Part shown: piece after piece, positions 7,112 through 26,204 of the stretch
How the letters are laid out: every line of letters starts with the position of its first letter
Position numbering within the stretch: the stretch's first letter is position 1
Assembly (NCBI GenBank): GCA_963978095.1
Contig: CAXBQP010000044.1
Coordinates: forward strand, 1 to 27,608
DNA length: 27,608 bases
Direction: 5' to 3'
Origin: an uncultured bacterium
GTDB lineage: Bacteria; Gemmatimonadota; Gemmatimonadetes; Gemmatimonadales; Gemmatimonadaceae
Notes under the pieces: model-generated
Told to the model about the DNA's origin: nothing
Seen by the model: the letters and a program-made list of their open reading frames with translations, nothing else
The model's database searches: none
Program-made: the position numbers and the translations under genes

Positions 7112-8851
7112 TCAACGGACCGGGGCGTCGAGCAGATGACGCACGGCCGACTCGAGGCTTCGCGCCGTAAACGGCTTGGGGAGGAAATCCGACTGCTCCG
7201 CCACGAGCCCGGTCCGTTCCACGAGATCCTCGGCGTGACCTGACACGTACAACACGCGAGTGCTCGGGCGCTCAGCCCGCAACGCGAGCGCGAGGTCGCG
7301 TCCCCCGAGCTCCGGCATGAGCATGTCGGTGATCAGCAGGTGGATTTCCCCGGGATGCGCCCGCGACACCTGCAGCGCCTCCGTCCCATTGGACGCACTC
7401 AGCACCGTGCACCCCGAGCGTTCGAGCGCACGACGCATGAGCTGGCGAATCGGCTCCTCATCCTCCGCGACGAGCACCGTCTCGTTGCCCCCAGAAGGCC
7501 GCGCCGGGACGTCGTCGACCACCTCGGCTTCCGGCGTACCCGTCGCCTCCGGCCAGTAGATCGAAAAGCAGCTGCCTACGCCGAGTTCGCTGTCCACCAC
7601 GATGTGGCCACCGGACTGGTTGACGATTCCGTAGAGCATGGAGAGTCCGAGTCCGGTTCCGCGATCAAGGGATTTGGTCGAGAAGAACGGCTCGAAGATC
7701 CGGTCCAGATGTTCGCGCTTGATTCCCGTTCCCGTGTCGCGCACCTGCAGCAGGACCCAGTCGCCGGCGGGGACCCCTCGCGCGACGATCGGGTCGTCGG
7801 CCAGCACGCGTGCCCGCCCCGTGCGGATTCGCAGCACCCCGCCACCAGGCATCGCATCCCGCGCGTTGATGGCCAGGTTCAGCAGGACCTGCTCCGTCTG
7901 GCTACGGTCCGCAGAGATGAGACAGAAGTCGGCGGGCGTCCGGATCTGGATGTCGACATGCTCGGCAATGACGCGGCGCAGCATCGGCTCGACGGCGTAC
8001 ACGACGGCATTCAAGTCGAGCACCGCCAATCGCAGCGTCTGCTTGCGACTGAAAGCGAGCAGCTGTTGCGTCAGCAGTGTCGCGCGTCGCGCGGACTTCA
8101 CGATCTCATCGACATCACTGCGCTCGGAGCTCCCCGCCTTCAGATCTTCCTGGAGGAACTCGGCGTTGGAGAGGATGACCGTCATCAGATTGTTGAAGTC
8201 GTGCGCGATCCCGCCGGCGAGCCTCCCGACCGCGTCCATCTTCTGCGCCTGTTCCAACTGCGCCGCGAGCGAGCGCTGTTCGGTGACGTCGCGCCATGTC
8301 CAGACGCGGCCGATCGTGCGCTCGCCGATCCGCTGCGGCAGCGAGTAGCGCTCGAACACCCGACCATCGAGGAAGCGGACCACATCCGATGTCGGCTGTT
8401 CGGCGTTCTGCGCGGCGTCAGCGACCTCGGCCACCAGCGCGACGGGATCGGTCACCAGTTGCGACAGAAAGCCGAGGATGGCGGTCTCATCGCGCGCGCT
8501 CAAGACCGCGGCCGGGAGCTGGAGCAGCGCTGCGAACCGTGAGTTCGTCCGGACGATCCGGCCGTCCATGTCCACGACGACGATGCCATCGGCAGTGCTT
8601 TCCAGCGTCGCGGTCAACACCGAGAGGGCTTGGCTGACGCCGTCCTTCTCATCGAGGGCATCGCGCAGGCGTTGGAACCGGTCCGCGAGTTCGATGGACA
8701 CGTTCTCCATCGAGCGCTCCAGCATCGCCCGGTCCTCATCCGCCTGCACGTAGGCGGCCTCGACGGCGGCCAGCAGGGGGCGCAACGACTCGGGGACCGC
8801 GTCGGTGGACCCGAACTGCTTGCGCAGCTGCCGAGCGAGCAGCTTGTGCAC
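7112..8851 (-). CDS. Hybrid PAS sensor histidine kinase / response regulator (CckA-like architecture)
   Basis: PAS-like region LESTADGIVVVD; H-box GGIAHDFNNL; N-box NLAINARDAM; DTGTGI; FEPFFSTK; GTGLGLS; receiver motifs AEDE, ITDMLMP and LPKPF. GTG start 1 nt after the FIST stop. Confidence 0.93.
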   Translation of the reverse strand: MHKLLARQLRKQFGSTDAVPESLRPLLAAVEAAYVQADEDRAMLERSMENVSIELADRFQRLRDALDEKDGVSQALSVLTATLESTADGIVVVDMDGRIVRTNSRFAALLQLPAAVLSARDETAILGFLSQLVTDPVALVAEVADAAQNAEQPTSDVVRFLDGRVFERYSLPQRIGERTIGRVWTWRDVTEQRSLAAQLEQAQKMDAVGRLAGGIAHDFNNLMTVILSNAEFLQEDLKAGSSERSDVDEIVKSARRATLLTQQLLAFSRKQTLRLAVLDLNAVVYAVEPMLRRVIAEHVDIQIRTPADFCLISADRSQTEQVLLNLAINARDAMPGGGVLRIRTGRARVLADDPIVARGVPAGDWVLLQVRDTGTGIKREHLDRIFEPFFSTKSLDRGTGLGLSMLYGIVNQSGGHIVVDSELGVGSCFSIYWPEATGTPEAEVVDDVPARPSGGNETVLVAEDEEPIRQLMRRALERSGCTVLSASNGTEALQVSRAHPGEIHLLITDMLMPELGGRDLALALRAERPSTRVLYVSGHAEDLVERTGLVAEQSDFLPKPFTARSLESAVRHLLDAPVR

Positions 8852-8852
8852 G

Positions 8853-9989
8853 TTACCGCTCGGAGAAGGTGGTGATCGTCATGGTCTGGTTGTGCAACTC
8901 GCACCGGGCGGACGAGGAGAATGGCGAGATCTCCCCGTACGAGTAGAACCCACCGAGCACGGTGTCCGCGCCCAGCACCTCGCGCACGCTCTCCACCTCC
9001 TCCTCGACGCGCTGCTTGAGCACCAGCTTGCGGCCGACGCAGCTGATGAGAATGGCCACCGACGCCGTGTTCCCGGCGAGCGGCTCGATGCTGGCGTCGG
9101 CCGCGCCGTGCGCGCCGTCGATCAAGCGGTCGACGTTGGCCTTCATCAGGCGGGCCTGCGCCCCCTCTGGCATGTCGCCGGCGAAGGTGAGACTGCCGGC
9201 GGCTTCATCGATGCCGAGAATGGTGCGCACGATGCGGCGATCCCCCTCACCCGCGATGCTCAAGGGAAACAGCAGGCCGCTCGAGGGCAGATCGGCGGCA
9301 TGCGGTCCGAGATAGGACTTGTACAGATCGAGTGCCGGGCTGCCGTCGAGCTCGTAGAGCACGTTGCCCGACGCGCGCGTGATGGTGCGATCCGGCCCGA
9401 AGGAATCCCAGCCGCCCATCGATCCGTACCCGACCCGCAACCGGTCGCCGTAGAATGCCAGGCCGACGACGGCGCCGCTGAGCACTTCGCCGTCGACGCA
9501 CACCAGCGTTTGTTCGAACTTGGCGGCATCACCCGCCAGACCGCCCGTGACGGCGACCCGGGCGGGCAGGCTGTCGCGGAGCCCTCGCACGAGTTCAGTG
9601 CCGTTGATGTTGAGCCCTTCGGCAAGGACGAACAGATGACTCAGGCCTTCGCCCGCCAGTTCGTGCGCGAGTTTCGCGCCCGCTTCGGCACTCTCGGAGG
9701 CGGTGGCGAGACGCACGTGCGCGATCCGAATCGTCGCATGCTCGAGTTCCATGGCCGTCGCGACCACGGTGTCGTCGGTGACCTCGACGCCGGAGATCTC
9801 CCCCGAGGTGCTGCACCCGATCTGGCGCGCGTCGGGATAGAGGGCGCGGAGCGCCTGCAGGACATCCCCCTGCCCCAGAGCGTTCCGAGCGCCGAAGAGG
9901 ATCACGACCTGTGGGTTCCGCACGCCGGCGCCGGACAGGGGCTCCGACCATCCCCCGTGACGTGTCCATCGACGTTGCTCGACGCGCAT
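8853..9989 (-). CDS. FIST (FIST_N + FIST_C) sensory protein, NosP-like
   Basis: GCSTSGEI, VTGGLAGD, GNVLYELDGSPALDLYKSYLG, LISCVGR, GFYSYGEI and LHNQT motifs. Start at the ATG at 9989 with GGAG 8 nt upstream. Confidence 0.92.
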   Translation of the reverse strand: MRVEQRRWTRHGGWSEPLSGAGVRNPQVVILFGARNALGQGDVLQALRALYPDARQIGCSTSGEISGVEVTDDTVVATAMELEHATIRIAHVRLATASESAEAGAKLAHELAGEGLSHLFVLAEGLNINGTELVRGLRDSLPARVAVTGGLAGDAAKFEQTLVCVDGEVLSGAVVGLAFYGDRLRVGYGSMGGWDSFGPDRTITRASGNVLYELDGSPALDLYKSYLGPHAADLPSSGLLFPLSIAGEGDRRIVRTILGIDEAAGSLTFAGDMPEGAQARLMKANVDRLIDGAHGAADASIEPLAGNTASVAILISCVGRKLVLKQRVEEEVESVREVLGADTVLGGFYSYGEISPFSSSARCELHNQTMTITTFSER

Positions 9990-10141
9990 CAGTGGCACTC
10001 CGGCGTGGGTGAGGAAGGGCGACGCACTGTCAAGATAGACCCGTCGGCACGGTTGCGGCGAGAGGGGGGTGGGGCGTGCGCGTGGATGCGGACCGCCCGG
10101 CGGCGTAGATTCCGACCGTCACCCACCGGAGAAGAATCGCG

Positions 10142-11833
10142 ATGTCCACCGTCGACCCCCACGCCTTCCCGCGCGAGACTCGTCGGGAGTTCGTCGCCAA
10201 AACGTTGATGCTGGGAGCGGCGGCGATGTTGGCGCCGGACGGGATGTCGGCGGAATCGGCGCCCGGTCAGCGCCGGGACGCGAGCGGCGTCGCGAGCGGC
10301 GTCGCGAGCGGCCCCACGCTGGGGACGGCGCCACAGGACTCGCCGTTCGAGAAATCCGTGAGCGAGCTCCAGGCCATGATGACACGGGGCGCACTGACGT
10401 CGCGGACGCTGACCGAGTTCTATCTCGCGCGCCTTGATACGTTGGACGCCAAGGGCCCGACGGTCAACAGCGTGATCGAGCGGAACCCCGACGCCCTGAC
10501 GATCGCGGACGCACTGGATGCGGAGCGCGCCGCGGGGCGCCTGCGGGGGCCGTTGCATGGCATCCCGGTACTCATCAAGGACAACATCGACACGGCCGAC
10601 CGAATGCACACGACGGCCGGGTCGCTCGCCCTCGCGACCAGCATCGCCCCCAAGGACGCGTTCATCGTACAGCGCCTCCGGGCCGCCGGCGCCGTGATCC
10701 TGGGCAAGACGAACCTGAGCGAGTGGGCCAATTATCGTTCCACCCGCAGCACCAGCGGTTGGAGCGGACGCGGCGGCCAGACGAAGAACCCGTACGTCCT
10801 CGACCGGAATCCCTGCGGCTCGAGCTCGGGGACGGGGGCGGCGATCGCGGCGGATTTCGCGGCGGTCGGCATCGGGACCGAGACCGACGGATCGATCATC
10901 TGCCCGTCGTCGATGAACGGTCTGGTGGGGTTGAAGCCGACGGTCGGGCTGTGGAGCCGCGCCGGGATCATCCCGATCTCCAGTTCGCAGGACACGGCGG
11001 GCCCGATGGGGCGCACGGTGGCCGACGTGGCGGTGTTGCTCGGCCTCCTCACCGGCGTCGACACGCGCGACGGCGCGACCGCCGCCAGCAAGGGGAAGTC
11101 CCGTGACGACTACACCACCGCCCTGAAGGCCGATGGGCTGCGCGGTGCGCGGATCGGGGTGGCGCGCAACCTGGCCGGTTTCAACGACACGGTGGACGCC
11201 CGATTCGAAGCCGCCATCGATGCCATGGCCAAGGCGGGCGCCGTCATCGTGGACAAGGCCAACCTGACCACGGTCGGGCAGTTCGACGACGCGGAATCGC
11301 TCGTCCTGGACTATGAGTTCAAAGCCGGCGTCAACGCCTACCTCGCGTCGCTTGGCGCGGCCGCACCGGTCAAATCGCTCACCGAACTGATTGCGTGGAA
11401 TGAGAAGAATGCGGCGCGCGAGATGCCGTGGTTCGCGCAGGAGATCTTCGTGCGCGCGAACGCGCGTGGCGCGTTGACCGATCGCGCGTACTTCGACGCA
11501 CGGGCCCGGTGCGTCCGCTTGGCACGCACCGAGGGGATCGATGCCGTCATGGCGGCGCATCGCCTCGACGCGATCATCTGCCCGTCCAATCAGCCCGCGT
11601 GGCCCACCGACCCACTCAACGGCGACCACTTCACCGGCGGCAACACGTCGTTCGCGGCGGTGGCGGGCTACCCGAGCATCACCGTGCCGATGGGGTTCGA
11701 CCACGAGCTGCCGCTGGGCCTCTCGTTCATCGGCAGGGCGTGGAGCGAAGCGACGCTGCTCACGCTCGCGTACGGATTCGAACAGAAGACGCGCGCACGT
11801 CGGGCGCCGCAGTTCCTGTCGACGCTCGGCTGA
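10142..11833 (+). CDS. Amidase-signature family amidase (peptide amidase-like), Tat-exported
   Basis: Tat motif TRREFV; catalytic Lys in GIPVLIKDNI; GKTNLSEWAN; CGSSSG; GTETDGSI. Confidence 0.92.
   Translation: MSTVDPHAFPRETRREFVAKTLMLGAAAMLAPDGMSAESAPGQRRDASGVASGVASGPTLGTAPQDSPFEKSVSELQAMMTRGALTSRTLTEFYLARLDTLDAKGPTVNSVIERNPDALTIADALDAERAAGRLRGPLHGIPVLIKDNIDTADRMHTTAGSLALATSIAPKDAFIVQRLRAAGAVILGKTNLSEWANYRSTRSTSGWSGRGGQTKNPYVLDRNPCGSSSGTGAAIAADFAAVGIGTETDGSIICPSSMNGLVGLKPTVGLWSRAGIIPISSSQDTAGPMGRTVADVAVLLGLLTGVDTRDGATAASKGKSRDDYTTALKADGLRGARIGVARNLAGFNDTVDARFEAAIDAMAKAGAVIVDKANLTTVGQFDDAESLVLDYEFKAGVNAYLASLGAAAPVKSLTELIAWNEKNAAREMPWFAQEIFVRANARGALTDRAYFDARARCVRLARTEGIDAVMAAHRLDAIICPSNQPAWPTDPLNGDHFTGGNTSFAAVAGYPSITVPMGFDHELPLGLSFIGRAWSEATLLTLAYGFEQKTRARRAPQFLSTLG
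10279..10312 (+). repeat. In-frame 12-bp tandem repeat (CGCGAGCGGCGT, about 2.8 copies) in the amidase N-terminal linker
   Basis: CGCGAGCGGCGT CGCGAGCGGCGT CGCGAGCGGC, encoding ASGV-ASGV-ASG. Confidence 0.85.
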
Positions 11834-11850
11834 TGCGCTCGCCGACCGGC

Positions 11851-12399
11851 TCAGCGCATCGCGCGGAGCTGGTCGGCGAGCGCCGGGAAGTCCCGTTCTG
11901 CCGCCAGGTCGGCAGGCGTCCGCCCGTCGTGCATCGCCGCCTGCGGGTCTGCGCCCCCCGCACGGAGCAGCGCGACGAACCGCTCGCTGCCGCGGGAGGC
12001 CGCGATATGGAGCGGCGTGATCCCCGAAGCGCCCGTCGCGCCCACGTTGGCGCCGCGTGCGACCAAGAGTTCCACCAGCGCCGGGTTCCCCGCCCCGGCG
12101 AGTGCCGCATGCAACGGGCGGTTCGCCTCCCGCCCCGTGGAAATGGCCTCCACAGCCGCGCCGCGCTCCAGGAGCCAGCGCGCGGCGTCCACATGACCGT
12201 AGAAGCCGGCCAGATGGAGCGGGCTCCATCCGTCGCGGCTACGTCCATTAACCGTGGCCGGCGCCCGGTCATAGGCGACCGACATGGCCTCGAGGTCACC
12301 GACGGCGGCGGCGTCGCAGAGCTCCTGCGCGAGTAACGTGTCCGTCCCCGTCGCTTCGCGTGCACGAATCGCCGCCAGATCGTCGTCGCTCGTCGCCAT
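11851..12399 (-). CDS. Ankyrin repeat protein
   Basis: Repeats DGWSPLHLA, NRPLHAAL, GITPLHIAA and GRTPADLA, with LLERGA / LVARGANV turns. Confidence 0.9.
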   Translation of the reverse strand: MATSDDDLAAIRAREATGTDTLLAQELCDAAAVGDLEAMSVAYDRAPATVNGRSRDGWSPLHLAGFYGHVDAARWLLERGAAVEAISTGREANRPLHAALAGAGNPALVELLVARGANVGATGASGITPLHIAASRGSERFVALLRAGGADPQAAMHDGRTPADLAAERDFPALADQLRAMR

Positions 12400-12512
12400 C
12401 AGTCCTCCGGTATCAGGTACGAAACGGGGCTCCCTCGCCGCGTCGCCGAGAACGGTGCATCTTCAGGCGTTGGGTCCGCAACCCCGTCCGTCGCCCCCTA
12501 CCCGTTCCGCCC

Positions 12513-14081
12513 ATGCGATCGTTCCGTCGCGCCATCGTCGCGCTGTGCTGCGCCCTCCCCTCCGCACTCGTGGCGCAGGGGACGGCGGCCCCTCCTCCGG
12601 ACTTCGACGCCTACGTCGCGAAGGTGCTCGCGACCTTCCGCGTCCCCGGTGTCGCGGTCGCGATCGTGAAGGATGGGAAGGTCGTTCTGGCCAAGGGCTA
12701 CGGGGTGCGCACGTTGGGCAAGCCCGACCCCGTGGATTCGCTCACCCGGTTCGGGATCGCTTCCAACACCAAGGCCTTCACCGCGACGGCGCTCGCGATT
12801 CTCGTCGAGCGCGGGAAGTTGCGGTGGGACGAGCCGGTCCGCACCTATCTCCCGGACTTCGCGATGTACGACCCGTTCGTCACGCGTGCGATCACGGTGC
12901 GTGATCTGCTGGTGCACCGTAGCGGACTCGGACTCGGGGCCGGCGACCTGCTGTGGTGGCCAGCCTCGACCTACACCCGCGCGGAGATCGCGCAGCGACT
13001 TCGCTACATCAAACCGGCGACCTCGTTCCGCAGCGCCTACGCCTACGACAATGTGCTGTATCTCGTCGCCGGGCAGCTCATCGAGAAGATCAGCGGGATG
13101 TCGTGGGAGACCTTCATGAGCACCGAGTTGCTGCAACCGCTCGGGATGTCACACAGCACGGTGCGACACGCGGATGCGGCCTCCGGCGGAAATGTGGCAA
13201 CCACGCACGCTGAAGTGGAGGGCCAGGTCGTGGCGGTCCCCCCGATGACGAGCGACAACACGAATCCGGCCGGAGGGATCAACGCGGGAGCGGCGGACAT
13301 CGCTCGCTGGATGATCACGCAGCTCGACTCGGGACGCACACCCCAGGGCGCCCGGCTCTGGTCGCCGGCCTCGTCGCGTGAACTCTGGACCGGCGTCACG
13401 CCGATGCCGATCGACGGTACGCCGCCATCGCTGGCCCCGCTCCACCCGAGTTTCAACCTGTACGGCCTCGGCTTCGGGGTCCGCGACTATCGTGGCCACA
13501 AGATGCTCTCCCACACGGGTGGTCTGCCCGGTTACGTCTCCGAGATTCTCATGCTGCCCGACCAGCGGGTCGGCGTGGCGGTCTTCACGAACCAGGAATC
13601 CTCGGCCGCGTTCCGTTCGATCACCCTCGCGGTCCTGGACCATTGCCTCGGGGTGCAACCGGCGTGGGATTGGCTTGGCGCGTACCGGGCGCTCGACGCC
13701 GAATCGCGCGCGGCCTTGGCCACGGCTACGGTCCAGGAGACGGCACGCGACACCACGGTCCGCCCGAGTCTTGTGCTCGCGAAATACACCGGGACTTACA
13801 CGGACCGCTGGTACGGCGATGTCACGGTCGGCCTGCGCGACAGGCACCTGACGATGGCGTTCTCGCACAGTCCGGAGCTCACGGGGACATTGGAGCATCA
13901 GAAAGGCAACGCCTTCATCGTTCGCTGGAAGGACCGCTCCCTGCGCGCCGATGCGGTGGTGACCTTCGATGTCCAACAGGGCGCCGTGACGCGCATCCGG
14001 ATGGTCCCCACGCCCGGCGTCGATTTCAGCTTCGACTTCCAAGACCTCGACCTGCGACCCAAGGGGAGCGGCCGCAGGTAA
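12513..14081 (+). CDS. Beta-lactamase-family (AmpC-like, S12) serine hydrolase with a C-terminal DUF3471-like domain; exported
   Basis: SxxK (ASNTK), YxN (YDN), HTGG and LLVHRSG; C-terminal YTGTYTDRWYG; signal peptide MRSFRRAIVALCCALPSALVAQ from the ATG at 12513. Confidence 0.9.
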   Translation: MRSFRRAIVALCCALPSALVAQGTAAPPPDFDAYVAKVLATFRVPGVAVAIVKDGKVVLAKGYGVRTLGKPDPVDSLTRFGIASNTKAFTATALAILVERGKLRWDEPVRTYLPDFAMYDPFVTRAITVRDLLVHRSGLGLGAGDLLWWPASTYTRAEIAQRLRYIKPATSFRSAYAYDNVLYLVAGQLIEKISGMSWETFMSTELLQPLGMSHSTVRHADAASGGNVATTHAEVEGQVVAVPPMTSDNTNPAGGINAGAADIARWMITQLDSGRTPQGARLWSPASSRELWTGVTPMPIDGTPPSLAPLHPSFNLYGLGFGVRDYRGHKMLSHTGGLPGYVSEILMLPDQRVGVAVFTNQESSAAFRSITLAVLDHCLGVQPAWDWLGAYRALDAESRAALATATVQETARDTTVRPSLVLAKYTGTYTDRWYGDVTVGLRDRHLTMAFSHSPELTGTLEHQKGNAFIVRWKDRSLRADAVVTFDVQQGAVTRIRMVPTPGVDFSFDFQDLDLRPKGSGRR

Positions 14082-14112
14082 TCCCTACGCACCAGGGCGA
14101 CGGAGCCTCCAG

Positions 14113-15867
14113 GTGAACATCCTCCTGATCCACGGCATCGGACATTGCGATGCCGACGCGGACTACTATCAGCCGTGGCGCACCGCGATCGCCGAAGGAC
14201 TCCGCGCCGCGGGAGCGACGGCAACGCCGGTGTTCGCCGAGTTCACCTACGATGCCCTGTTTGCCGAACGCCACGCCGGCCCCGCGCTGTACGCGCAAGC
14301 GCTGAGCGAACTCGCGGGCAGCGTCGCCCTGCATGCGCTGCACGACGCCGGAAGACTCGGCACCGATGCGACCCGAGCCTTTGAGTCCCCCGCGGACTGG
14401 ATGCAATGGCGGCTGGGGATGGTCGCGCAGTTCGTGGTCGAGGGGGAGTTGCGGCGCGCGCTGCGCGCGCGGCTGCACCTCGCGATCCGACGGACGACGC
14501 CGGACCTGATCGTGGCGCACAGCCTCGGCTCGCTGCTCGCGTTCGACTATCTGTGCAACGATTCCCGCGCGGCGCTCCCCGCGACGACATTGTTGAGCTT
14601 CGGATCGCAGATCGGGAACCTCTTCGTGCGGAATCGCCTCTGGCCGGGACGATTTACCCTGCCGCCGGTCAAGCAGTGGTTCCATCTGTTCAATCCGCAG
14701 GATCGCGTCTTCACGGCGGAGGTCCCGATCACGGATGACCCGCGGTTCATCGCCGTGGACACCTCGAGCGCGGCCGGACATGCGCCGACCCGCACCGTGG
14801 ATGGCGCGGGCTACCTGGACCATCCGGCCACCGCGCGCGCGGTGTGGCCGGTCCTCGCGAGCGCCGCGGCCGGCCGGGAGTTCACGCGCGCAGCCCTGGT
14901 GCGCCACCGGTCGCGGCGCACGCCGCACCGTCGCGCGCTGTTGATCGGGATCAACGCGTATCCCGACCCGTCGCATCGACTCGCAGGCTGCGTGAATGAC
15001 ACCTTCCTCGCGTCGCGCGTGCTGCAGGAGCGCGGCTTCGAAGCCGCCGACATCCGCGTCCTGCTGGACGCGCGAGCGACGGCCGGCGCGATTCGCGATC
15101 GACTCGAATGGCTGTTCGACGGGGCCGACGACGGCTGCGAACGGGTGCTGTTCTACAGTGGGCACGGCGCGCAGCTGCCGGGCTACTCGGCCGCCGAGTC
15201 GGTCGACCATGTCGATGAATGTCTCGTGCCCTACGATTTTGATTGGTCGCTCGACCGTGCCATCACCGACAACGATTTCTTCCGCCGCTACAGCGAGCTC
15301 CCATTCAGCGCACGGTTCTCGGCGATCCTCGACTGCTGTCACGCCGGTGGGATGACGCGCGACGGCGGACCACGGATCCGCGGACTCACGCCGCCCGACG
15401 ACATCCGGCATCGCCTCATGCACTGGGACCAGCGCCGAGAATCCTGGCAGCCTCGTACGCTGGCACCGATCAGCCTCCGCTACCAGCGCGAGCGCGACGG
15501 GCGGATGGCCGGCGCCAACCGTGCGACGTATCGCTTGGGACGGGGGATGGCGCTCCGCGGCCCGCTCTCACGCGCAACGGAACGCGCGCTGATCCGGCAG
15601 AAGCGCGGATTGTATCTCCCCGTGCTGTTCGAGGCGTGCGGCGAACAGGAACTCGCGCACGAGTACCGGCACGGGTCGGAGTCGTACGGCGCCTTCACCT
15701 GGTCGTTGGCGAACGTGCTGCGCCGCCAGCCACGCCTGACCTGGCACCAGCTGCACGCCGCCGTCACCGACGAACTGTCAGCGCTGGGGTTCGGCCAGCA
15801 TCCCGAACTGGTCGGCCCCAGAAACCCGCTCACCCGCCGGGCGCTGACCGCCGGCGCTCGGCGCTAG
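14113..15867 (+). CDS. Fusion of an N-terminal alpha/beta hydrolase (lipase-like) and a C-terminal caspase-family peptidase (C14, metacaspase-like)
   Basis: N-terminal half: LLIHGIG, nucleophile elbow VAHSLGS, LLSFGSQI, NPQDRV, GH...YLDHP. C-terminal half: RRALLIGINAY, LAGCVND, FYSGHG, DECLVPYD, ILDCCHAGG, ACGEQELAHE, YGAFTWSL, QHP. GTG start with GGAG 7 nt upstream; no signal peptide. Confidence 0.88.
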   Translation: MNILLIHGIGHCDADADYYQPWRTAIAEGLRAAGATATPVFAEFTYDALFAERHAGPALYAQALSELAGSVALHALHDAGRLGTDATRAFESPADWMQWRLGMVAQFVVEGELRRALRARLHLAIRRTTPDLIVAHSLGSLLAFDYLCNDSRAALPATTLLSFGSQIGNLFVRNRLWPGRFTLPPVKQWFHLFNPQDRVFTAEVPITDDPRFIAVDTSSAAGHAPTRTVDGAGYLDHPATARAVWPVLASAAAGREFTRAALVRHRSRRTPHRRALLIGINAYPDPSHRLAGCVNDTFLASRVLQERGFEAADIRVLLDARATAGAIRDRLEWLFDGADDGCERVLFYSGHGAQLPGYSAAESVDHVDECLVPYDFDWSLDRAITDNDFFRRYSELPFSARFSAILDCCHAGGMTRDGGPRIRGLTPPDDIRHRLMHWDQRRESWQPRTLAPISLRYQRERDGRMAGANRATYRLGRGMALRGPLSRATERALIRQKRGLYLPVLFEACGEQELAHEYRHGSESYGAFTWSLANVLRRQPRLTWHQLHAAVTDELSALGFGQHPELVGPRNPLTRRALTAGARR

Positions 15868-22026: not shown

Positions 22027-24984
22027 ATGGCTCAAACATTTGGTTCACGGTGGACGCGCCTGATCGCGGCGGCCCTCTTGGCCATCCCCGCACTGGGGCA
22101 GGCACAGGGCGGCGCGACGATCAGCGGCACCGTCAGCGAGCGCGGGTCGAACAACCCGCTCGAACGCGCGCAGGTCAGCATCGTCGGCAAGGCGATTGCC
22201 GTCGCCACCGACGCCAAGGGCGGCTTCACGCTGCGTGGTGTTGACGCCGGCACGGTCACCGTCCGCGCGCAGTACATCGGCTACGAAGCCCGTGAACAGG
22301 TCGTCCAGGTGACCGCCAACGGCACCCTGCGCGTGAACTTCGCGCTGAGCCGTACGGCGGTCACGCTGTCGGGCGTCATGGTCACCGCCACCGGCGAGGA
22401 GCGCCGCCGCTCGGTCGGCACGGCGATGGCGACGGTCGACACGGCGCAGATCGAGCGCTCGGCCGCCACCAACACCCAGCAGCTGCTCGCGGGCTCCACC
22501 CCGGGCGTCACGGTGCTGGCCAACGGCGGTCAGCCGGGCTCCGGCGCCACCGTCCGCCTCCGCGGCGTCAACAGCGTGAGCATGGGAAACAGCCCGCTCA
22601 TCTATGTGGATGGCGTGCGCGTGTACGGTGGCAACACCCCGACCAACGTCGGCGGCCGTCAGTTCAGCTCGCCGCTGAACGACATCGCGGCGGAAGACAT
22701 CGACCACATCGAAATCGTGAAGGGCCCCGCGGCCACGACGCTCTACGGCACCGAAGCCTCCGGCGGCGTACTGCAGATCTTCACCAAGCAGGGCGTCGAA
22801 GGCGCGCCGCGCTGGAACCTCAGCGTCACGTCCGGCTACAACAACATGGGGCACGTGGGTCCGGCCTCGGACACCACCGGGCTGTACATCAACAGCTGCG
22901 CCGGCATCCACGTCATGAATGACTCGGCGCGCACCAAGTTCCAGGACGCCAGCTGCCCGGCGAGCGGAAGCTGGCTCTCCAACGGCCCGATCCAGCGCAC
23001 GTCGATCAGCGTGCGCGGTGGCAGCTCCAACGGCACGACGTACGACCTGAGCGTCACGGGCAACAATGAGCGTGGCGTGCTGCCCGTCGGTGGGTCGTAC
23101 ATCCGCTCCTTCCGCATGAACATCGGCTTCAAGCCGGCCAAGGGCTTCACCATCGGCTTCAACCAATCGTTCGTCAACAACCGCTCGGTCGGCTTCCCGG
23201 ACGGCAACAGCTCGAACGGCGTGATGCTCAACATCTCGCGTGGGTCGGGCTCGAACTTCAAGGGCCCGGGCTGCGCGGATCTGACCATCGTCTGCGTCCT
23301 GAACGACAGCTTGTTCACCTCGCAGGTCACCAACACCACGAACCACTTTGTGACCGGCGCGTCGCTGACCTACCAGCCGTTCGACGCCTGGACCACGCGC
23401 CTCACGCTCGGCTTCGACTACAACAACGCCGACATCCAGTACATCACGCCGTTCGGCCACCTCCGTGTCCCGCTCGGCCAGATGTACCAGACCCTCTGGA
23501 CCCGTCAGTTCCTGTCGGCCGACCTGGCCTCGACCTACCGCAAGCAGCTCGCCACGAACTGGAGCAGTGCGACCGCTGTCGGCGGACAGGTCTTCGAGAA
23601 CCGGGTGTATTCGACCGACCTCCAGAGTGACAACTTCGCCGGCCCCGGCGACCCGACACTCCTCTCGGGCTCGCTCAAGCAGATCACCGGGGTCACGCAG
23701 CAGCGCGTGATCAACGCCGGCTACTTCGCGCAGGAGACGATCGGCTGGCGCGATGTGCTCTTCGTGACCATCGGCGCGCGTGCCGACGGCAACAGCGCCT
23801 TCGGCAAGAGCTTCGGCATCCAGACCTACCCCAAGATCAGCGCCTCGTACGTGATCTCGGATGAATCATTCTGGCCCCGTCGCTGGATCGAGACCCTCAA
23901 GCTGCGCGGCGCCATCGGCGACGCCGGCAAGGCGCCGGGCGCGTTCGACGCCGTCCGGACCTGGACCCCGGTCGCCGCGGAAGGCGGCAAGCCGGCCTTT
24001 GCCACCAACCAGATCGGCAACCCGAACCTCGGTCCGGAGCGCACCCGCGAAATTGAACTCGGATTCGACGCCAGCGCGCTCAATGGCCGCGTGAACCTGC
24101 AGTACACGCACTTCGACCAGCACACCTATCAGGCGCTGATCCCAGTGCAGCAGGCCCCTTCGCTCGGCTTCGCGGGCTCCCAGCTGATCAACGCCGGAGA
24201 CCTGATGAACTCGGGCCACGAGGTCCAGCTGAATGTCGACATCTTCCGCAGCCGCAACGTCGACGTCAGCACCCGCATCGGCTACATGCAGTTGCACAGT
24301 GAAGCCGGAAACATCGGTGGCGTGCCCCTGACGATCTTCGCCCTCGGCCGCACCTACGTGGTGCAGGGGCTGCCGATTCCGTCGTACTACGGCCCCAAGG
24401 TCATGAACCCGACGGAGTTCGCGAACCCGGTCATCCAGCAGAACCAGGACCTCGGCTCGGCGTTCGCCAACCGGATCTGGAGCCCGGGCATCTCGGTCAA
24501 GCTCTTCCGTCGCGTCACGGTCGATGCGCAGGGTGAGTGGCAGCTGGGCGGCCACAACCTGAACGCACTGGCCTACCAGAACGCGAACCTCAACTCGTGG
24601 CAGCCGTGCTTCAACGCGCAGGACCAGATGCGCAAGGCCGCCGCGGGTGACTCCTCGGGGCTCGCCACCATCAACGCCCTCGACCGCGCGCGTTGCACGA
24701 TCAACACCAAGATCGCGCGTGACTACGGGTTCTTCGTCGAGGCCAACGACTTCTTCAAGCTCCGCAGCGTGTCGGTGACGTACGACCTGCCGAAGTCGAT
24801 CCTCCGCTTCGGCGCGCGCTCGGGATCGCTGGCCTTCGCCGGTCGCAACCTGTTCACGTCGACGAAGTACACCGGGACCGATCCGGAAGTCTCTGACCAG
24901 CGCGACGACCAGTTCGCTCGCCGCGACTACTACGTGTTCCCGACCTCCCGGTCGTTCACGATGACCCTCCGCCTGGGCTTCTGA
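22027..24984 (+). CDS. SusC/RagA-family TonB-dependent outer membrane transporter
   Basis: Signal peptide; N-terminal carboxypeptidase-regulatory-like domain; plug motifs RLRG, PLIYVDG and IEIVKGPAATTLYGTEASGGV; GNPNLGPERTREIELGFD; FFKLRSVSVTY; GRNLFT..KYTGTDPE; terminal Phe (LRLGF). Confidence 0.93.
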   Translation: MAQTFGSRWTRLIAAALLAIPALGQAQGGATISGTVSERGSNNPLERAQVSIVGKAIAVATDAKGGFTLRGVDAGTVTVRAQYIGYEAREQVVQVTANGTLRVNFALSRTAVTLSGVMVTATGEERRRSVGTAMATVDTAQIERSAATNTQQLLAGSTPGVTVLANGGQPGSGATVRLRGVNSVSMGNSPLIYVDGVRVYGGNTPTNVGGRQFSSPLNDIAAEDIDHIEIVKGPAATTLYGTEASGGVLQIFTKQGVEGAPRWNLSVTSGYNNMGHVGPASDTTGLYINSCAGIHVMNDSARTKFQDASCPASGSWLSNGPIQRTSISVRGGSSNGTTYDLSVTGNNERGVLPVGGSYIRSFRMNIGFKPAKGFTIGFNQSFVNNRSVGFPDGNSSNGVMLNISRGSGSNFKGPGCADLTIVCVLNDSLFTSQVTNTTNHFVTGASLTYQPFDAWTTRLTLGFDYNNADIQYITPFGHLRVPLGQMYQTLWTRQFLSADLASTYRKQLATNWSSATAVGGQVFENRVYSTDLQSDNFAGPGDPTLLSGSLKQITGVTQQRVINAGYFAQETIGWRDVLFVTIGARADGNSAFGKSFGIQTYPKISASYVISDESFWPRRWIETLKLRGAIGDAGKAPGAFDAVRTWTPVAAEGGKPAFATNQIGNPNLGPERTREIELGFDASALNGRVNLQYTHFDQHTYQALIPVQQAPSLGFAGSQLINAGDLMNSGHEVQLNVDIFRSRNVDVSTRIGYMQLHSEAGNIGGVPLTIFALGRTYVVQGLPIPSYYGPKVMNPTEFANPVIQQNQDLGSAFANRIWSPGISVKLFRRVTVDAQGEWQLGGHNLNALAYQNANLNSWQPCFNAQDQMRKAAAGDSSGLATINALDRARCTINTKIARDYGFFVEANDFFKLRSVSVTYDLPKSILRFGARSGSLAFAGRNLFTSTKYTGTDPEVSDQRDDQFARRDYYVFPTSRSFTMTLRLGF

Positions 24985-24986
24985 TA

Positions 24987-26204
24987 ATGACGACCCTTCG
25001 CAACTTCGGACGCCGATCGATCGGCGTCGCCGCTGTGGTCCTCGCGGCGTGCAACATGCAGGTGACCAACCCGGGTCCGCTCCAGGACTCGCAGCTCAAT
25101 GCCGTCTCCGCGATGCCGGCGCTCGTCAACGGCATGTCGGGCGACCTCTCGTACGCGCTCGGCAACTACATCGATCGCGGCGGGCTGGCCTCCGGTGAGA
25201 TGACGGAAGCGGGCAACTACTCCGCCGAACAGCAGTACTGGTTCGGCATCATCCGCCCGGACGACGTCAATCCGGATTGGGCCAACATGCAGCAGGCGCG
25301 TTGGTCGGCGGAGAATGGCATCGAGCGCATGAAGACCGTGCTCGGCGCCAACTTCGAGAAGAACGTGGACACCCCGCGCGCATATCTCTACGCCGGTTTT
25401 GCCAACCGCTTGCTCGGTGAGAACGTCTGCACCGGCGTGATCGACGGCGGCCCGGCGCAAAGCGACACCGTGTACTTCGTGCGCGCGGAAAGCCTCTTCA
25501 CCCGCGCCTACACGCTCGCCACCGCGCTTGCCAACACCAACGTGGCCAACGCCGCGCTCGGCGGTCGTGCGTCGGTGCGTGCCTGGCAGGGCAAGTGGAC
25601 CGACGCGGTCGCCGATGCCGCGCTCGTGCCGAACGCGTTCGTCTACAACGCGATCTTCTCGACGAACAGCACGCGCGAGAACCTCGACATGGCGGTCCAG
25701 ACCATCTCGCGTCGTGAGACCACGGTGTTCGGGACGGTGTATGCGGGCATCTCCAAGACCGACCCACGCACCCCGTGGGACACGGTCAAGGTCGGTACCG
25801 CGATCCAGACCGGACAGGACGGCAAGACCAAGTTCTTCCAGCAGAAGAAGTACACCTCGCTCGGCAGCCCGGTCCCGCTCGTGAAGGGCGCCGACATGTT
25901 GCTGCTCCGCGCCGAGGAACGGCTCCGGGCCAACGACCTGCCGGGCATGACCACGCAGATCAACTCGGCGCGTGCCACCTGGACGGGGCTGACCCCGGTA
26001 ACGCAGCCCGCGACCACCGCGGCCGCGTGGACCCTGCTGCAGGCCGAGCGCGGCTCGGCGCTCTGGCTCGAGGGGCGTCGCCTGTGGGACCTGCGCCGTT
26101 GGTACGCGGAAGGCACCAATACCTTCCTGACGGGCCGCAGCAAGTGCGTGCCGGTCAGCACCAACGAGCGCGCGTCCAACCCGAACCCGATGCCGGCGCC
26201 GTAA
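24987..26204 (+). CDS. SusD/RagB-family surface lipoprotein
   Basis: Lipobox VLAAC; LLRAE and ERGSALWLEGRRLWDLRR motifs; 2 nt after susC. Confidence 0.9.
   Translation: MTTLRNFGRRSIGVAAVVLAACNMQVTNPGPLQDSQLNAVSAMPALVNGMSGDLSYALGNYIDRGGLASGEMTEAGNYSAEQQYWFGIIRPDDVNPDWANMQQARWSAENGIERMKTVLGANFEKNVDTPRAYLYAGFANRLLGENVCTGVIDGGPAQSDTVYFVRAESLFTRAYTLATALANTNVANAALGGRASVRAWQGKWTDAVADAALVPNAFVYNAIFSTNSTRENLDMAVQTISRRETTVFGTVYAGISKTDPRTPWDTVKVGTAIQTGQDGKTKFFQQKKYTSLGSPVPLVKGADMLLLRAEERLRANDLPGMTTQINSARATWTGLTPVTQPATTAAAWTLLQAERGSALWLEGRRLWDLRRWYAEGTNTFLTGRSKCVPVSTNERASNPNPMPAP

Follow-up and report, generated by a model that had tools for sequence, protein, structure and literature searches.

A single-chain alpha/beta-hydrolase and metacaspase fusion as a probable sensor-less form of a bacterial zymogen death module

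Introduction

Only in 2025 were protease-gated zymogens shown to be a principal way in which bacterial immunity works. In Lysobacter capsici AZ78, as the text of the preprint describes it, LcCaspase activates the zymogen LcHydrolase by cleavage after Arg (R|G) in the lid region, whereupon the enzyme is lethal to the cell; the sites are R73 and R117, and the fragments have 8.1, 4.7 and 19.8 kDa (Evans et al. 2025, bioRxiv, PMC12642450). LcHydrolase is already a separate protein, yet it is inactive before the internal cleavage. The same text describes the stand-alone hydrolase as a toxic zymogen in E. coli and the proteases of the modules as fused to sensors (PMC12642450). The pairing of a caspase with an alpha/beta hydrolase was first pointed out by Kaur et al. 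(2020, eLife, PMC7159879), in whose text VMAP caspase domains always have a neighbouring alpha/beta-hydrolase gene.

The protein considered here resembles these systems in part. Like the VMAP (vWA-MoxR) and GAP1 systems, which we liken to it from their description in the text of PMC7159879, it combines a caspase with an alpha/beta hydrolase, there the predicted effector pair; however, those are adjacent genes in multi-gene NTPase-based systems, whereas the fusion is a lone gene with no NTPase nearby. Our literature search, which covered passages of the text of PMC12642450, PMC7159879 and PMC4933709, found no description of a single-chain hydrolase-metacaspase.

Two other groups of proteins bear on the comparison. 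Metacaspases cleave after Arg or Lys, and in the plant type II metacaspases the linker is processed after Arg or Lys, with control by Ca2+. In 2022, Johnson et al. are said to have described a bacterial gasdermin with an adjacent caspase-like protease. As in gasdermin systems, the protease of the fusion would putatively free an effector that damages membranes, but this effector is an enzyme and gasdermin is a pore former. No gasdermin-like gene adjoins the fusion, both flanking genes belonging to other clear Pfam families.

Results

The gene lies at 14113..15867 on the + strand of the window, by which we mean the whole stretch of DNA that was analysed (27,608 nucleotides). The open reading frame starts with GTG, a Shine-Dalgarno-like GGAG can be read 7 nt ahead of it (14102..14105, +), and homologues have their M at the same position as the start residue. 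An earlier note on this DNA had described the product as 584 residues with two intact catalytic domains and no signal peptide, and both statements held. In a conservation sample of 195 non-identical family members, S137, D197, H351, C408 and C409 were each found in 195/195. Because strand 1 of the structure model takes up residues 2-6 and H7-G8 follows immediately, there is no room for a signal peptide, and the protein is leaderless according to the model. It consists of an alpha/beta-hydrolase domain without a Pfam family (residues 1-250; 14113..14862, +), an inter-domain linker (residues 251-272; 14863..14928, +) and a metacaspase domain (residues 273-584; 14929..15864, +). Pfam matched Peptidase_C14 at residues 273-566 (E 8.5e-25) and no other domain of the fusion, and it gave no sensor domain; the family search placed the caspase domain at 14929-15813. 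The motifs are HG at 7-8, AHSLG at 135-139, NPQD at 194-197, AGHAP at 221-225, YLDHP at 234-238, SGHG at 349-352 and DCCH at 407-410.

The N-terminal half had been read as an alpha/beta hydrolase from its motifs, and a fold check was run that agrees with this. In the models, residues 1-265 have an alpha/beta-hydrolase fold. The AF2 model of the domain has a pLDDT of 84.4 and a pTM of 0.84, and the best 50 rows of a VIA-align comparison were all alpha/beta hydrolases (Z 10.3-13.1), with the Nir2 DDHD domain (9jyx, Z 13.1) at the top, followed by carboxylesterases and lipases (Z 10.3-12.7). Foldseek also returned 9jyx (E 1.9e-4). The closest solved folds, namely 9jyx and the lipases or carboxylesterases 1auo, 6nkc, 5h6g and 4x90, align over 158-202 residues with Z 11.3-13.1 and have a similar nucleophile motif, (A/G)HSLG, but they are 12-20% identical with no sequence-level match, and the substrate cannot be inferred from them. 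Searches by sequence gave little. Pfam, NCBIfam and PADLOC found nothing on residues 1-265 (Pfam and NCBIfam at E up to 1), a PDB sequence search with the domain gave 0 matches at E up to 10, and a word-based homologue search with the domain alone gave 9 matches, none usefully named. In the ESM Atlas the nearest feature matches scored 0.86-0.89, under the 0.9 bar; a minority of their members carry LCAT, PGAP1, DUF900 or Lipase_3, which are leads only.

The catalytic residues fall where such a fold would place them. H7-G8 (14131..14136, +), directly after strand 1 and present in 192/195 family members, is presumably the oxyanion-hole motif, as we assume from the usual layout of alpha/beta hydrolases. 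The nucleophile elbow A-H-S137-L-G (14515..14529, +) lies between strand 132-136 and helix 138-149, and the catalytic acid is in N194-P-Q-D197 (14692..14703, +), after strand 186-193, with N194 also in 195/195. For the catalytic His, the earlier note had offered two candidates, GH and YLDHP. The first was retained: H223 (14779..14781, +), in the AGHAP loop after strand 212-216, was invariant in a 38-sequence alignment of the N-terminal domain and present in 177/195 sequences of an HMM-guided alignment. H237 of YLDHP, present in 169/195, was rejected in comparison. The triad S137/D197/H223 thus has the canonical Ser-Asp-His order with a nucleophile elbow.

The C-terminal half contains the catalytic H351 of SGHG (15163..15165, +) and C409, the second Cys of DCCH (15337..15339, +), which aligns to the catalytic position of AtMC9 chain 8a53, an Ala there. 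The top 10 of its 11 PDB sequence matches were metacaspases, and AtMC9 (8a53, E 2.6e-20) and AtMC4 (6w8s, E 6.9e-20) were the best solved relatives. These type II metacaspases share with the fusion the order p20, long linker, p10 and the motifs GC(V/I)ND and D-x-C-H-(S/A)-G-G; their match falls into two stretches, residues 268-415 and 500-566, separated by about 85 residues without a match. D296, found in 195/195 family members, aligns to the GCIND motif of AtMC9, and we take the Asp of GCxND to form the acidic S1 pocket for Arg or Lys. Unlike AtMC4 and AtMC9, the fusion is bacterial and has a hydrolase at its N-terminus, and the sequence of its p20-p10 linker (PPDDIRHR and the rest) is specific to the fusion family. 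This linker (residues 410-500; 15340..15612, +), described earlier as an Arg-rich insert, is conserved in sequence, with PPDDIRHR at 427-434 invariant in the family, and is mostly modelled with low confidence. When the fusion was searched with PADLOC, only the generic 'caspase' model PDLC02987 matched, at profile positions 3-130 of 453.

Among 185,579 species genomes, at least 564 stretches matched the fusion. Homologues of the same architecture, which the earlier note had thought worth collecting, were gathered from them, and 80/80 of the loci that were kept span both halves. The best 120 homologues have 483-631 residues, and 117 of them cover 97-100% of the query; the three shorter ones (483-491 residues) cover 80-82%. 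Both halves are under joint selection: S137, D197, H351 and C409 are invariant and all 80 loci span the two halves. The fusion is a real, conserved family. Its distribution is very patchy and accessory. It is full-length in 4/29 other genomes of the genus, in 0/31 genomes of the order's other genera and in 4/300 genomes of the family around locus L083, and record titles place it in about ten phyla, including Gemmatimonadota, Verrucomicrobiota, Planctomycetota, several proteobacterial classes, Chloroflexota, Acidobacteriota, Nitrospirota and Methylomirabilota. Neither the 72,556 plasmid records nor the 50,697 phage records contained a full-length fusion (at least 80% query coverage). Matches to the caspase half alone did occur on plasmid and phage records.

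The hydrolase domain is joined to other proteases as well. Among 52 representatives picked for unusual length from 150 listed, the second domain was Peptidase_C14 in 38, papain C1 in 1, clostripain C11 in 1 and CHAP in 1 (25.3 vs 26 bits, below the Pfam cut-off), and 11 had no second domain. At loci L130 and L131 it is fused to Peptidase_S8. The hydrolase family is thus repeatedly tied to proteases of at least five families.

Relatives of the hydrolase domain also occur alone. A profile of the domain matched stand-alone hydrolases at 8 loci of another bacterial family (E 9e-29 to 6e-20). Two of these directly follow 650-residue C14 proteins, two abut TPR-S + Trypsin_2 proteases, one has a TPR-S protein 1.2 kb away and three have no protease neighbour. 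One of the caspase-adjacent hydrolases, at locus L154, has 298 residues and matched the profile over hmm positions 2-242 (hmmsearch E 9e-29); hhalign aligned it to our domain over 235 columns (98.7%, E 2.2e-16). It has exactly two Arg-Gly sites, at 73 and 118, and would give fragments of 8.4, 4.9 and 20.1 kDa. Because the two sites and the fragment sizes agree with those published, it is probably the orthologue of LcHydrolase.

Through the L154 hydrolase the fusion can be compared with the two-gene module. Both pair a caspase-type Cys protease with a lipase-like hydrolase of the same family, and both types of hydrolase have a conserved Arg, usually followed by Gly, in the loop just ahead of the lid helices. 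They differ in that the fusion, a form known from sequence, is one polypeptide instead of two genes, has no sensor domain or sensor gene, and offers one conserved candidate site instead of two. In the hhalign alignment the first site falls in an insertion of 16 residues that the fusion family does not have, and the excised middle piece of about 45 residues in LcHydrolase compares with a loop of about 18 in the fusion. The proteases differ too, that of the fusion being of a different, type II metacaspase-like clade. Its caspase half is only distantly related, by sequence, to the caspase adjoining the L154 hydrolase (30% over 107 residues, E 7e-5).

The loop in question comprises residues 73-90 (14329..14382, +), which have a pLDDT below 50 in both models, and its R88 (codon 14374-14376) is the candidate activating site. 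R is found at this position in 191/195 members, where it is followed by G in 121, D in 35 and A in 25; the present copy has R|A, and most relatives have R|G. In the alignment, R88 falls within 3-4 residues of the second Arg-Gly site of the L154 hydrolase (R118-G119). Two candidate self-processing sites lie in the p20-p10 linker, where residues 410-434 and 451-486 have a pLDDT below 50. They are R423|G (15379-15381, +), with R in 194/195 and then G in 178, and R477|G (15541-15543, +), with R in 174/195 and then G in 94, A in 70 and S in 10. R88, R423 and R477 are the only conserved Arg residues that stand mainly before Gly or Ala within segments of such low pLDDT; the conserved R274-A275, in contrast, sits in an ordered strand.

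Docking of the two halves to each other was weakly supported. The median score was 0.42 (runs 0.42, 0.67 and 0.33) against 0.00 for the best of three controls, with at least 66% contact agreement and a partner pLDDT of at least 77. The mark used is reached by 116/157 solved complexes and 2/215 mismatched pairs, and a score of 0.60 or less at the mark was seen in 18/157 solved complexes and in both passing mismatches. We do not lean on this result, because it is silent on whether the R88 loop reaches the active site.

The surroundings of the gene are exported or catabolic enzymes without a visible partner, as the earlier note had observed and as the Pfam families of the neighbours bear out. Upstream is a gene of the beta-lactamase family with DUF3471 (12360..14081, +; Pfam), in which a stretch resembling a signal peptide runs from an internal Met, residue 52, and on the other flank is a GH27 alpha-galactosidase. 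The 31-nt gap between the upstream gene and the fusion holds no promoter-like or terminator-like site, and the sequence suggests that the two are probably co-transcribed. The upstream gene precedes the fusion in 3/3 same-genus genomes with a close copy (72-74% identical). Its orthologue (64-76% identical) is kept in genomes of the genus that have no fusion, but because no other window genes surround it there, the genus offers no clean empty site. The syntenic catabolic block is stable in four genomes of the genus, and the G+C of the fusion is that of its flanks. Because of this stable synteny, the flank-like G+C and the probable co-transcription, the fusion looks more like a resident gene than part of a defence island.

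A defence-gene neighbourhood, which the earlier note had proposed to look for, did not appear. Of 37 proteins sampled, 4 are neighbours from the window, 23 are tightly linked to the fusion at homologous loci and 10 come from three loci with a stand-alone hydrolase. PADLOC gave 0 matches among 33 non-protease neighbours in this sample; over the 37, its generic caspase model matched 5 caspases, and there were weak protease-domain matches on one trypsin protein. No mobile genes were found nearby. An all-against-all BLAST of 4,019 ORFs from 83 loci gave no conserved partner gene and no neighbour family beyond one lineage, the largest non-overlapping clusters being generic ABC ATPases, at 13 loci, and a synteny block confined to Verrucomicrobia, at 10-12 loci. 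A sensor gene (STAND, beta-transducin, vWA-MoxR) was found neither on the 27.6-kb contig nor among 62 tight neighbours at 47 homologous loci.

Discussion

We consider it rather probable that the fusion is a single-chain, sensor-less form of the bacterial module in which a caspase gates an alpha/beta-hydrolase zymogen to kill the cell. The Arg-specific metacaspase half would be kept inactive by the conserved, disordered p20-p10 linker, as in type II metacaspases. Upon some trigger, it may process itself at R423|G and/or R477|G and then cleave the hydrolase half of its own chain or of another protomer at R88, ahead of the lid helices. The hydrolase so activated would act as an esterase or lipase-type enzyme and harm the cell, with regulated cell death, possibly abortive infection, as the outcome. 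Because no sensor domain or gene accompanies the fusion, the trigger must act on the fusion itself or through an unlinked factor. In favour of this reading are the joint conservation of both active sites, the hydrolase fold, the kinship with protease-linked hydrolases, the fusions to other proteases, the candidate cut sites, the accessory distribution and the VMAP pairing. Against it stand the single counterpart to the two sites of the LcHydrolase type, the Ala after R88 in this copy and the Asp there in 35/191 relatives, the lack of a neighbouring sensor or defence gene, the resident look of the locus, the distant relation of the caspase halves and the lack of full-length copies among the plasmid and phage records. 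The single-chain form holds an enzyme, a gate and perhaps a trigger within one 584-residue protein, and it is a simple object for mapping cleavage sites, for searching the substrate of the hydrolase and for studying how a metacaspase without a sensor is activated. Its hydrolase domain, which has no Pfam match, recurs in fusions with caspase, clostripain, papain, CHAP and subtilisin proteases and adjoins trypsin-type genes, and with its help many genes labelled 'caspase family protein' could receive a sharper annotation.

It is possible, though we hold it doubtful, that the fusion is a complete and autonomous death switch in one protein. The metacaspase would itself sense the cue, for example Ca2+ entry or envelope damage as with plant metacaspases, process its own linker first and then cleave the N-terminal zymogen of the same protein after just one Arg, and no separate sensor, partner or second cleavage would be needed. 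If this were true, gene transfer would have carried a minimal form of protease-effector logic into about ten phyla, and some lineages would have built it into cascades that add a second caspase or clostripain as well as cell-wall hydrolases.

The fusion could also be an executioner only, which a protease or sensor encoded elsewhere switches on as in a caspase cascade. The fused sensors of the published proteases (PMC12642450, as its text describes them) would be consistent with such a division of labour. The neighbours of the homologues give it further weight, since among the 47 homologous loci (of 82) with a tightly linked same-strand neighbour, a stand-alone Peptidase_C14 gene is found at 14, Peptidase_C11 at 5, in five different lineages, and Peptidase_C70 at 1. 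However, 11 of the 14 are of the Verrucomicrobia type with shared synteny and are not independent, and 35/82 loci lack any tightly linked gene on the same strand. In addition, no C14 match besides the fusion was obtained in this genome, which is 91% complete, and no protease gene lies beside the fusion here or in its three closest relatives of the genus. We regard an external activator of this kind as unlikely.

The earlier note had proposed a protease-gated death effector in which the caspase cuts the Arg-rich inter-domain linker and frees an already competent, membrane-active hydrolase. The gating by a protease survives as most likely in our preferred reading, the hydrolase half belonging to a family of protease-associated zymogens, but the proposed cut site does not. 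The richness in Arg is real (11.8% in the whole protein, 8/20 at residues 255-274 and 20/91 in the insert 410-500), residues 268-272 are unstructured in the model, R273 and R274 are kept in 178/195 and 193/195 members, and cleavage after Arg or Lys is what a metacaspase does. Nevertheless, it is this copy whose linker is rich in Arg; across the family little of the linker is conserved beyond R/K at 255 (179/195), P271 (174/195) and the R273-R274 pair. Residues 251-267 are modelled as a helix (pLDDT 60-69), and R273-R274, with A275 next, fall inside the first caspase strand (273-279). AtMC9, which has no hydrolase to free, has a similar basic stretch, KKR, just ahead of the residues that align to this region; because of this and of the position in a strand, the pair is a general feature of metacaspases and not the mark of a cleavage site. 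The two-gene hydrolase, moreover, is inactive although it is already free (PMC12642450, by its text). A cut within the hydrolase is more likely than one in the linker, because R88 is near-invariant, lies in a disordered loop and matches the position of the known site, and we consider release through the linker improbable.

Hardly probable at all is a non-lethal, cytoplasmic, two-headed enzyme, unrelated to conflict or death, that turns over lipids, lipoproteins or peptides or remodels them under stress. Such a role would suit the stable catabolic synteny in four genomes, the flank-like G+C, the lack of mobile or defence genes nearby and the link of bacterial metacaspases to stress responses as well as cell death (as described in the text of PMC4933709), but not the very patchy phyletic pattern, the repeated joining of the hydrolase family to at least five protease families or the toxicity of the stand-alone relative in E. 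coli (as described in the text of PMC12642450).

The 15 sequencing runs listed for this DNA include no RNA run. Thirteen of them contain part of the stretch; all are DNA runs from freshwater, aquatic or marine metagenomes.

The two halves of the fusion protein

The fusion gene (14113-15867, + strand) is an ORF of 584 aa with a GTG start, 7 nt upstream of which a GGAG motif can be read on the same strand, and the alignment indicates that the start residue is common to the homologues. Pfam gave a sole match, to Peptidase_C14 at residues 273-566 (E 8.5e-25), and matched no family in residues 1-265, while NCBIfam and PADLOC returned only generic caspase matches for the fusion. Every motif listed in an earlier note on this DNA was found where the note had placed it. 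The note had also seen no signal peptide, and this was borne out because residues 2-6 already form the first hydrolase strand, with H7-G8 directly after it, leaving no room for one.

The N-terminal half has the fold of an alpha/beta hydrolase. Residues 1-265, folded from a 40-row alignment, gave a model with a pLDDT of 84.4 and a pTM of 0.84, and its top PDB matches in Foldseek were the Nir2 DDHD domain (9jyx, E 1.9e-4) and small lipases. In a VIA-align comparison with 48,161 chains, 9jyx reached a Z of 13.1 and the best 50 rows were all alpha/beta hydrolases (Z 10.3-13.1), the fold relatives including carboxylesterases, lipases, lysosomal PLA2, acyl-protein thioesterases and PlaB. In the model, the catalytic residues occupy the canonical places of this fold, with S137 at the nucleophile elbow after strand 132-136, D197 after strand 186-193 and H223 in the loop after strand 212-216. 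Of the two catalytic His candidates in the earlier note, the conserved H223 was retained (invariant in the 38-sequence N-domain alignment, and present in 177 of 195 members in an HMM-guided alignment); the second, H237, kept in 169 of the 195, was not.

The best solved sequence relatives of the C-terminal half were the plant type II metacaspases AtMC9 (8a53, E 2.6e-20) and AtMC4 (6w8s, E 6.9e-20). Both aligned with p20 and p10 as separate stretches, leaving about 85 residues in between unmatched; therefore the Arg-rich insert that the earlier note had seen after the catalytic Cys is indeed present and is identified here as the linker between p20 and p10 in a type II-like metacaspase. C409 is the catalytic Cys and corresponds in the alignment to the mutated position of 8a53. 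The linker is strongly conserved (R416, R423, PPDDIRHR at 427-434, W438, W445, R477 and R482), and despite this conservation its pLDDT was below 50 at 410-434 and 451-486.

A rare family with co-conserved halves

Among 5.8 billion proteins, 829 matched the fusion. The best 120 of these were 483-631 aa long; 117 aligned over 97-100% of the query (44-99% identity), and the other three, which were shorter, over 80-82%. With one genome per species, relatives were encoded in at least 564 of 599 pattern-matched stretches. The two halves and their active sites are conserved together: all 80 loci kept from the species-genome search span both halves, and S137, N194, D197, H351, C408 and C409 are each present in 195 of 195 non-identical members. 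According to the record titles, the kept loci came from Gemmatimonadota, Verrucomicrobiota, Planctomycetota, Chloroflexota, Acidobacteriota, Nitrospirota, Methylomirabilota and others, as well as from alpha-, beta-, gamma- and deltaproteobacteria.

The fusion is thus a family, yet a rare and patchy one, with the phyletic pattern of an accessory gene. Within the genus, four of 29 further genomes had the full-length form (three copies at 72-74% identity, the fourth at 46%). It was found in none of 31 genomes from the other genera in the family and order, with the unpublished genome G006 counted among those lacking it, and in four of 300 genomes from the family to which the Pseudoxanthomonas locus L083 belongs (a tally that takes in the unpublished genomes G146, G233 and G310). 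Record searches found no full fusion on plasmid or phage records.

Proteases linked to the hydrolase

With the N-domain alone as query, an exhaustive search reached 440 cluster representatives at E <=1e-3, of which 244 had E <=1e-10. From 150 listed representatives, 52 were picked for lengths unlike the 600-aa form; Peptidase_C14 followed the hydrolase in 38 of these 52, other proteases were papain C1, clostripain C11 and CHAP (one each, CHAP at 25.3 vs 26 bits being just under the Pfam cut-off), and 11 had no second domain. Representative P0219 has C11 fused directly to the hydrolase domain. Further domains among the 52 were phospholipase C/acid phosphatase-type Phosphoesterase PF04185 (P0168, P0210, P0214 and P0229), a FAD oxidase domain, FAD_binding_4 or ALO (N-terminal in P0152, P0208 and P0255, C-terminal in P0186), and a PLD-like PLDc_2 domain after the caspase in P0157. 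Phospholipids are suggested as possible targets by these additional enzymes.

We also ran the N-domain profile, A3, over the 300 genomes around L083. Beyond the four fusions, 36 genomes had the catalytic core in open frames of 764-1020 codons; two of this group were given a Pfam check, and both combined the hydrolase with subtilisin Peptidase_S8 (L130:442-3363 and L131:103-2907, proteins of 935-974 aa). Stand-alone hydrolases were found in 11 genomes, in open frames of 318-496 codons. All eight stand-alone loci fetched matched A3 (E 9e-29 to 6e-20): the hydrolases of L154 and L155 lie directly downstream of 650-aa C14 proteins, those of L148 and L152 abut TPR-S + Trypsin_2 proteases, that of L149 lies 1.2 kb from a TPR-S protein, and three of the eight loci had no protease neighbour.

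In the text of Kaur et al. 2020 (PMC7159879), the caspase domains of VMAP systems are always accompanied by an adjoining alpha/beta-hydrolase gene. In Lysobacter capsici, according to the text of Evans et al. 2025 (PMC12642450), LcHydrolase is cut by LcCaspase at two R|G sites, Arg73 and Arg117, into fragments of 8.1, 4.7 and 19.8 kDa; its substrate is given as unknown, and the proteases carry fused sensors. The L154 hydrolase, aligned with A3 by hhalign over 235 columns (98.7% probability, E 2.2e-16), contains Arg-Gly only twice, at 73 and 118, for fragments of 8.4, 4.9 and 20.1 kDa. Because of these two sites and the similar fragment sizes, it is probably an orthologue of LcHydrolase as described there. 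The first-site region of LcHydrolase is a 16-residue insertion that the fused family lacks. Compared with the described LcCaspase/LcHydrolase pair, the fused form is single-chain, sensor-less and type II metacaspase-linked, and no description of such a form was found in the text of the literature searched. The kind is known, and this form is a variant of it.

Candidate cleavage sites and a proposed activation

We listed all positions where 85% or more of the 195 members have Arg or Lys. Only three combine mainly Gly or Ala as the next residue with a low-confidence segment (pLDDT <50): R88 in loop 73-90 (Arg in 191/195, then G 121, D 35, A 25), R423 in segment 410-434 (194/195, then G 178, A 17) and R477 in segment 451-486 (174/195, then G 94, A 70, S 10). 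Both profile alignments put R88 no more than 3-4 residues from L154 R118, and so just before a conserved Trp-led helix running into the lid. The earlier note had proposed a cut in the Arg-rich inter-domain linker, and this was not supported as stated: it required R273-R274 before A275, modelled inside the first caspase strand (for R274, Arg in 193/195, then A in 193), and in AtMC9, too, the residues aligned there are immediately preceded by a basic stretch.

The best-supported reading is that the fusion is a one-chain protease-gated zymogen. The metacaspase half would process its own linker and would then cut the hydrolase half at R88, which may unlock a lipase or esterase-type death effector. 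The analysis shows the folds of both halves, their intact active sites and joint conservation, the homology of the N-terminal half to hydrolases linked with proteases, the conserved Arg positions within loops modelled as disordered, and the accessory distribution; from these we infer the cleavage itself and the site used, as well as the toxicity, trigger and defence role of the fusion. When the two halves were docked as separate chains, the score was 0.42 vs 0.00 for the best control, which would slightly favour contact between them.

Genomic setting

Against a classical defence gene, the fusion has no sensor and no defence neighbourhood, and its catabolic context is stable in the genus. PADLOC gave no defence match among the window neighbours and 29 other non-protease proteins, sampled from the tightly linked genes of homologous fusions and from three loci with a stand-alone hydrolase. 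When 83 loci were compared, none of the neighbouring gene families extended past a single lineage.

Of the 82 loci outside the window, 47 had tightly linked neighbours on the strand of the fusion, 62 in all. Stand-alone C14 caspases made up 14 of them (L030, L041, L043, L046 at 7875-8810, L049, L051, L052, L054, L056, L061, L065, L078, L081 and L087), 160-453 aa long, mostly 270-311, and 4-99 nt from the fusion on its strand. Because 11 of the 14 share one Verrucomicrobia-type synteny block, these loci are not all independent. Their position beside the fusion suggests a two-caspase cascade. Clostripain C11 accounted for five neighbours in five different lineages (L016:99-1544, L024:3385-4698, L028:9802-11106, L047:2064-3428 and L050:6694-7920) and C70 protease for one. 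Four were cell-wall hydrolases directly beside the fusion (L034:7065-7862, L080:2689-4170, L078:10496-11956 and L082:9850-11430): two Amidase_2 proteins, with or without SH3, one with PG_binding, CHAP and pesticin-like domains, and one Rv2525c-like with SH3. With a beta-lactamase/PBP-family protein encoded upstream of the fusion in the window, a link between the fusion and the cell envelope is possible. The rest of the 62 were unrelated or unannotated.

The window is an entire contig of a 2.98 Mb genome (101 contigs, 91% complete). Upstream, 31 nt separate the fusion from a beta-lactamase-family + DUF3471 gene (12360-14081, + strand, Pfam) for a predicted exported beta-lactamase/PBP-family protein, and no terminator-like site was found in this gap. 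The listed GTG start of that gene is probably too early; because Met at residue 52 precedes a signal-peptide-like stretch (MRSFRRAIVALCCALPSALVAQG), the product is likely to be an exported protein of about 522 aa. A GH27 alpha-galactosidase gene lies downstream in convergent orientation. The block of GT87, amidase, beta-lactamase-family gene and fusion, then S51, GGT or GH27, is retained in the three other genomes of the genus that have a close copy, with identities of 75-90% for the flanking proteins and 71-74% for the fusion. Because this block is conserved and the G+C of the fusion is that of its flanks, the fusion has been inherited in place within the genus sub-clade.

The contig also encodes amidases, peptidases, a TonB receptor with SusD, a FIST protein and a sensor kinase. 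The TonB-dependent receptor with CarboxypepD_reg and the SusD/RagB-like gene after it (22027-26204, + strand) form a SusC/SusD-type pair in a Gemmatimonadota genome. Two long ORFs with no Pfam match, of 746 aa (9989-12229, - strand) and 467 aa (8805-10208, + strand), are antisense to the amidase and FIST genes, with which they overlap, and are most likely shadow ORFs of this 69% G+C genome.
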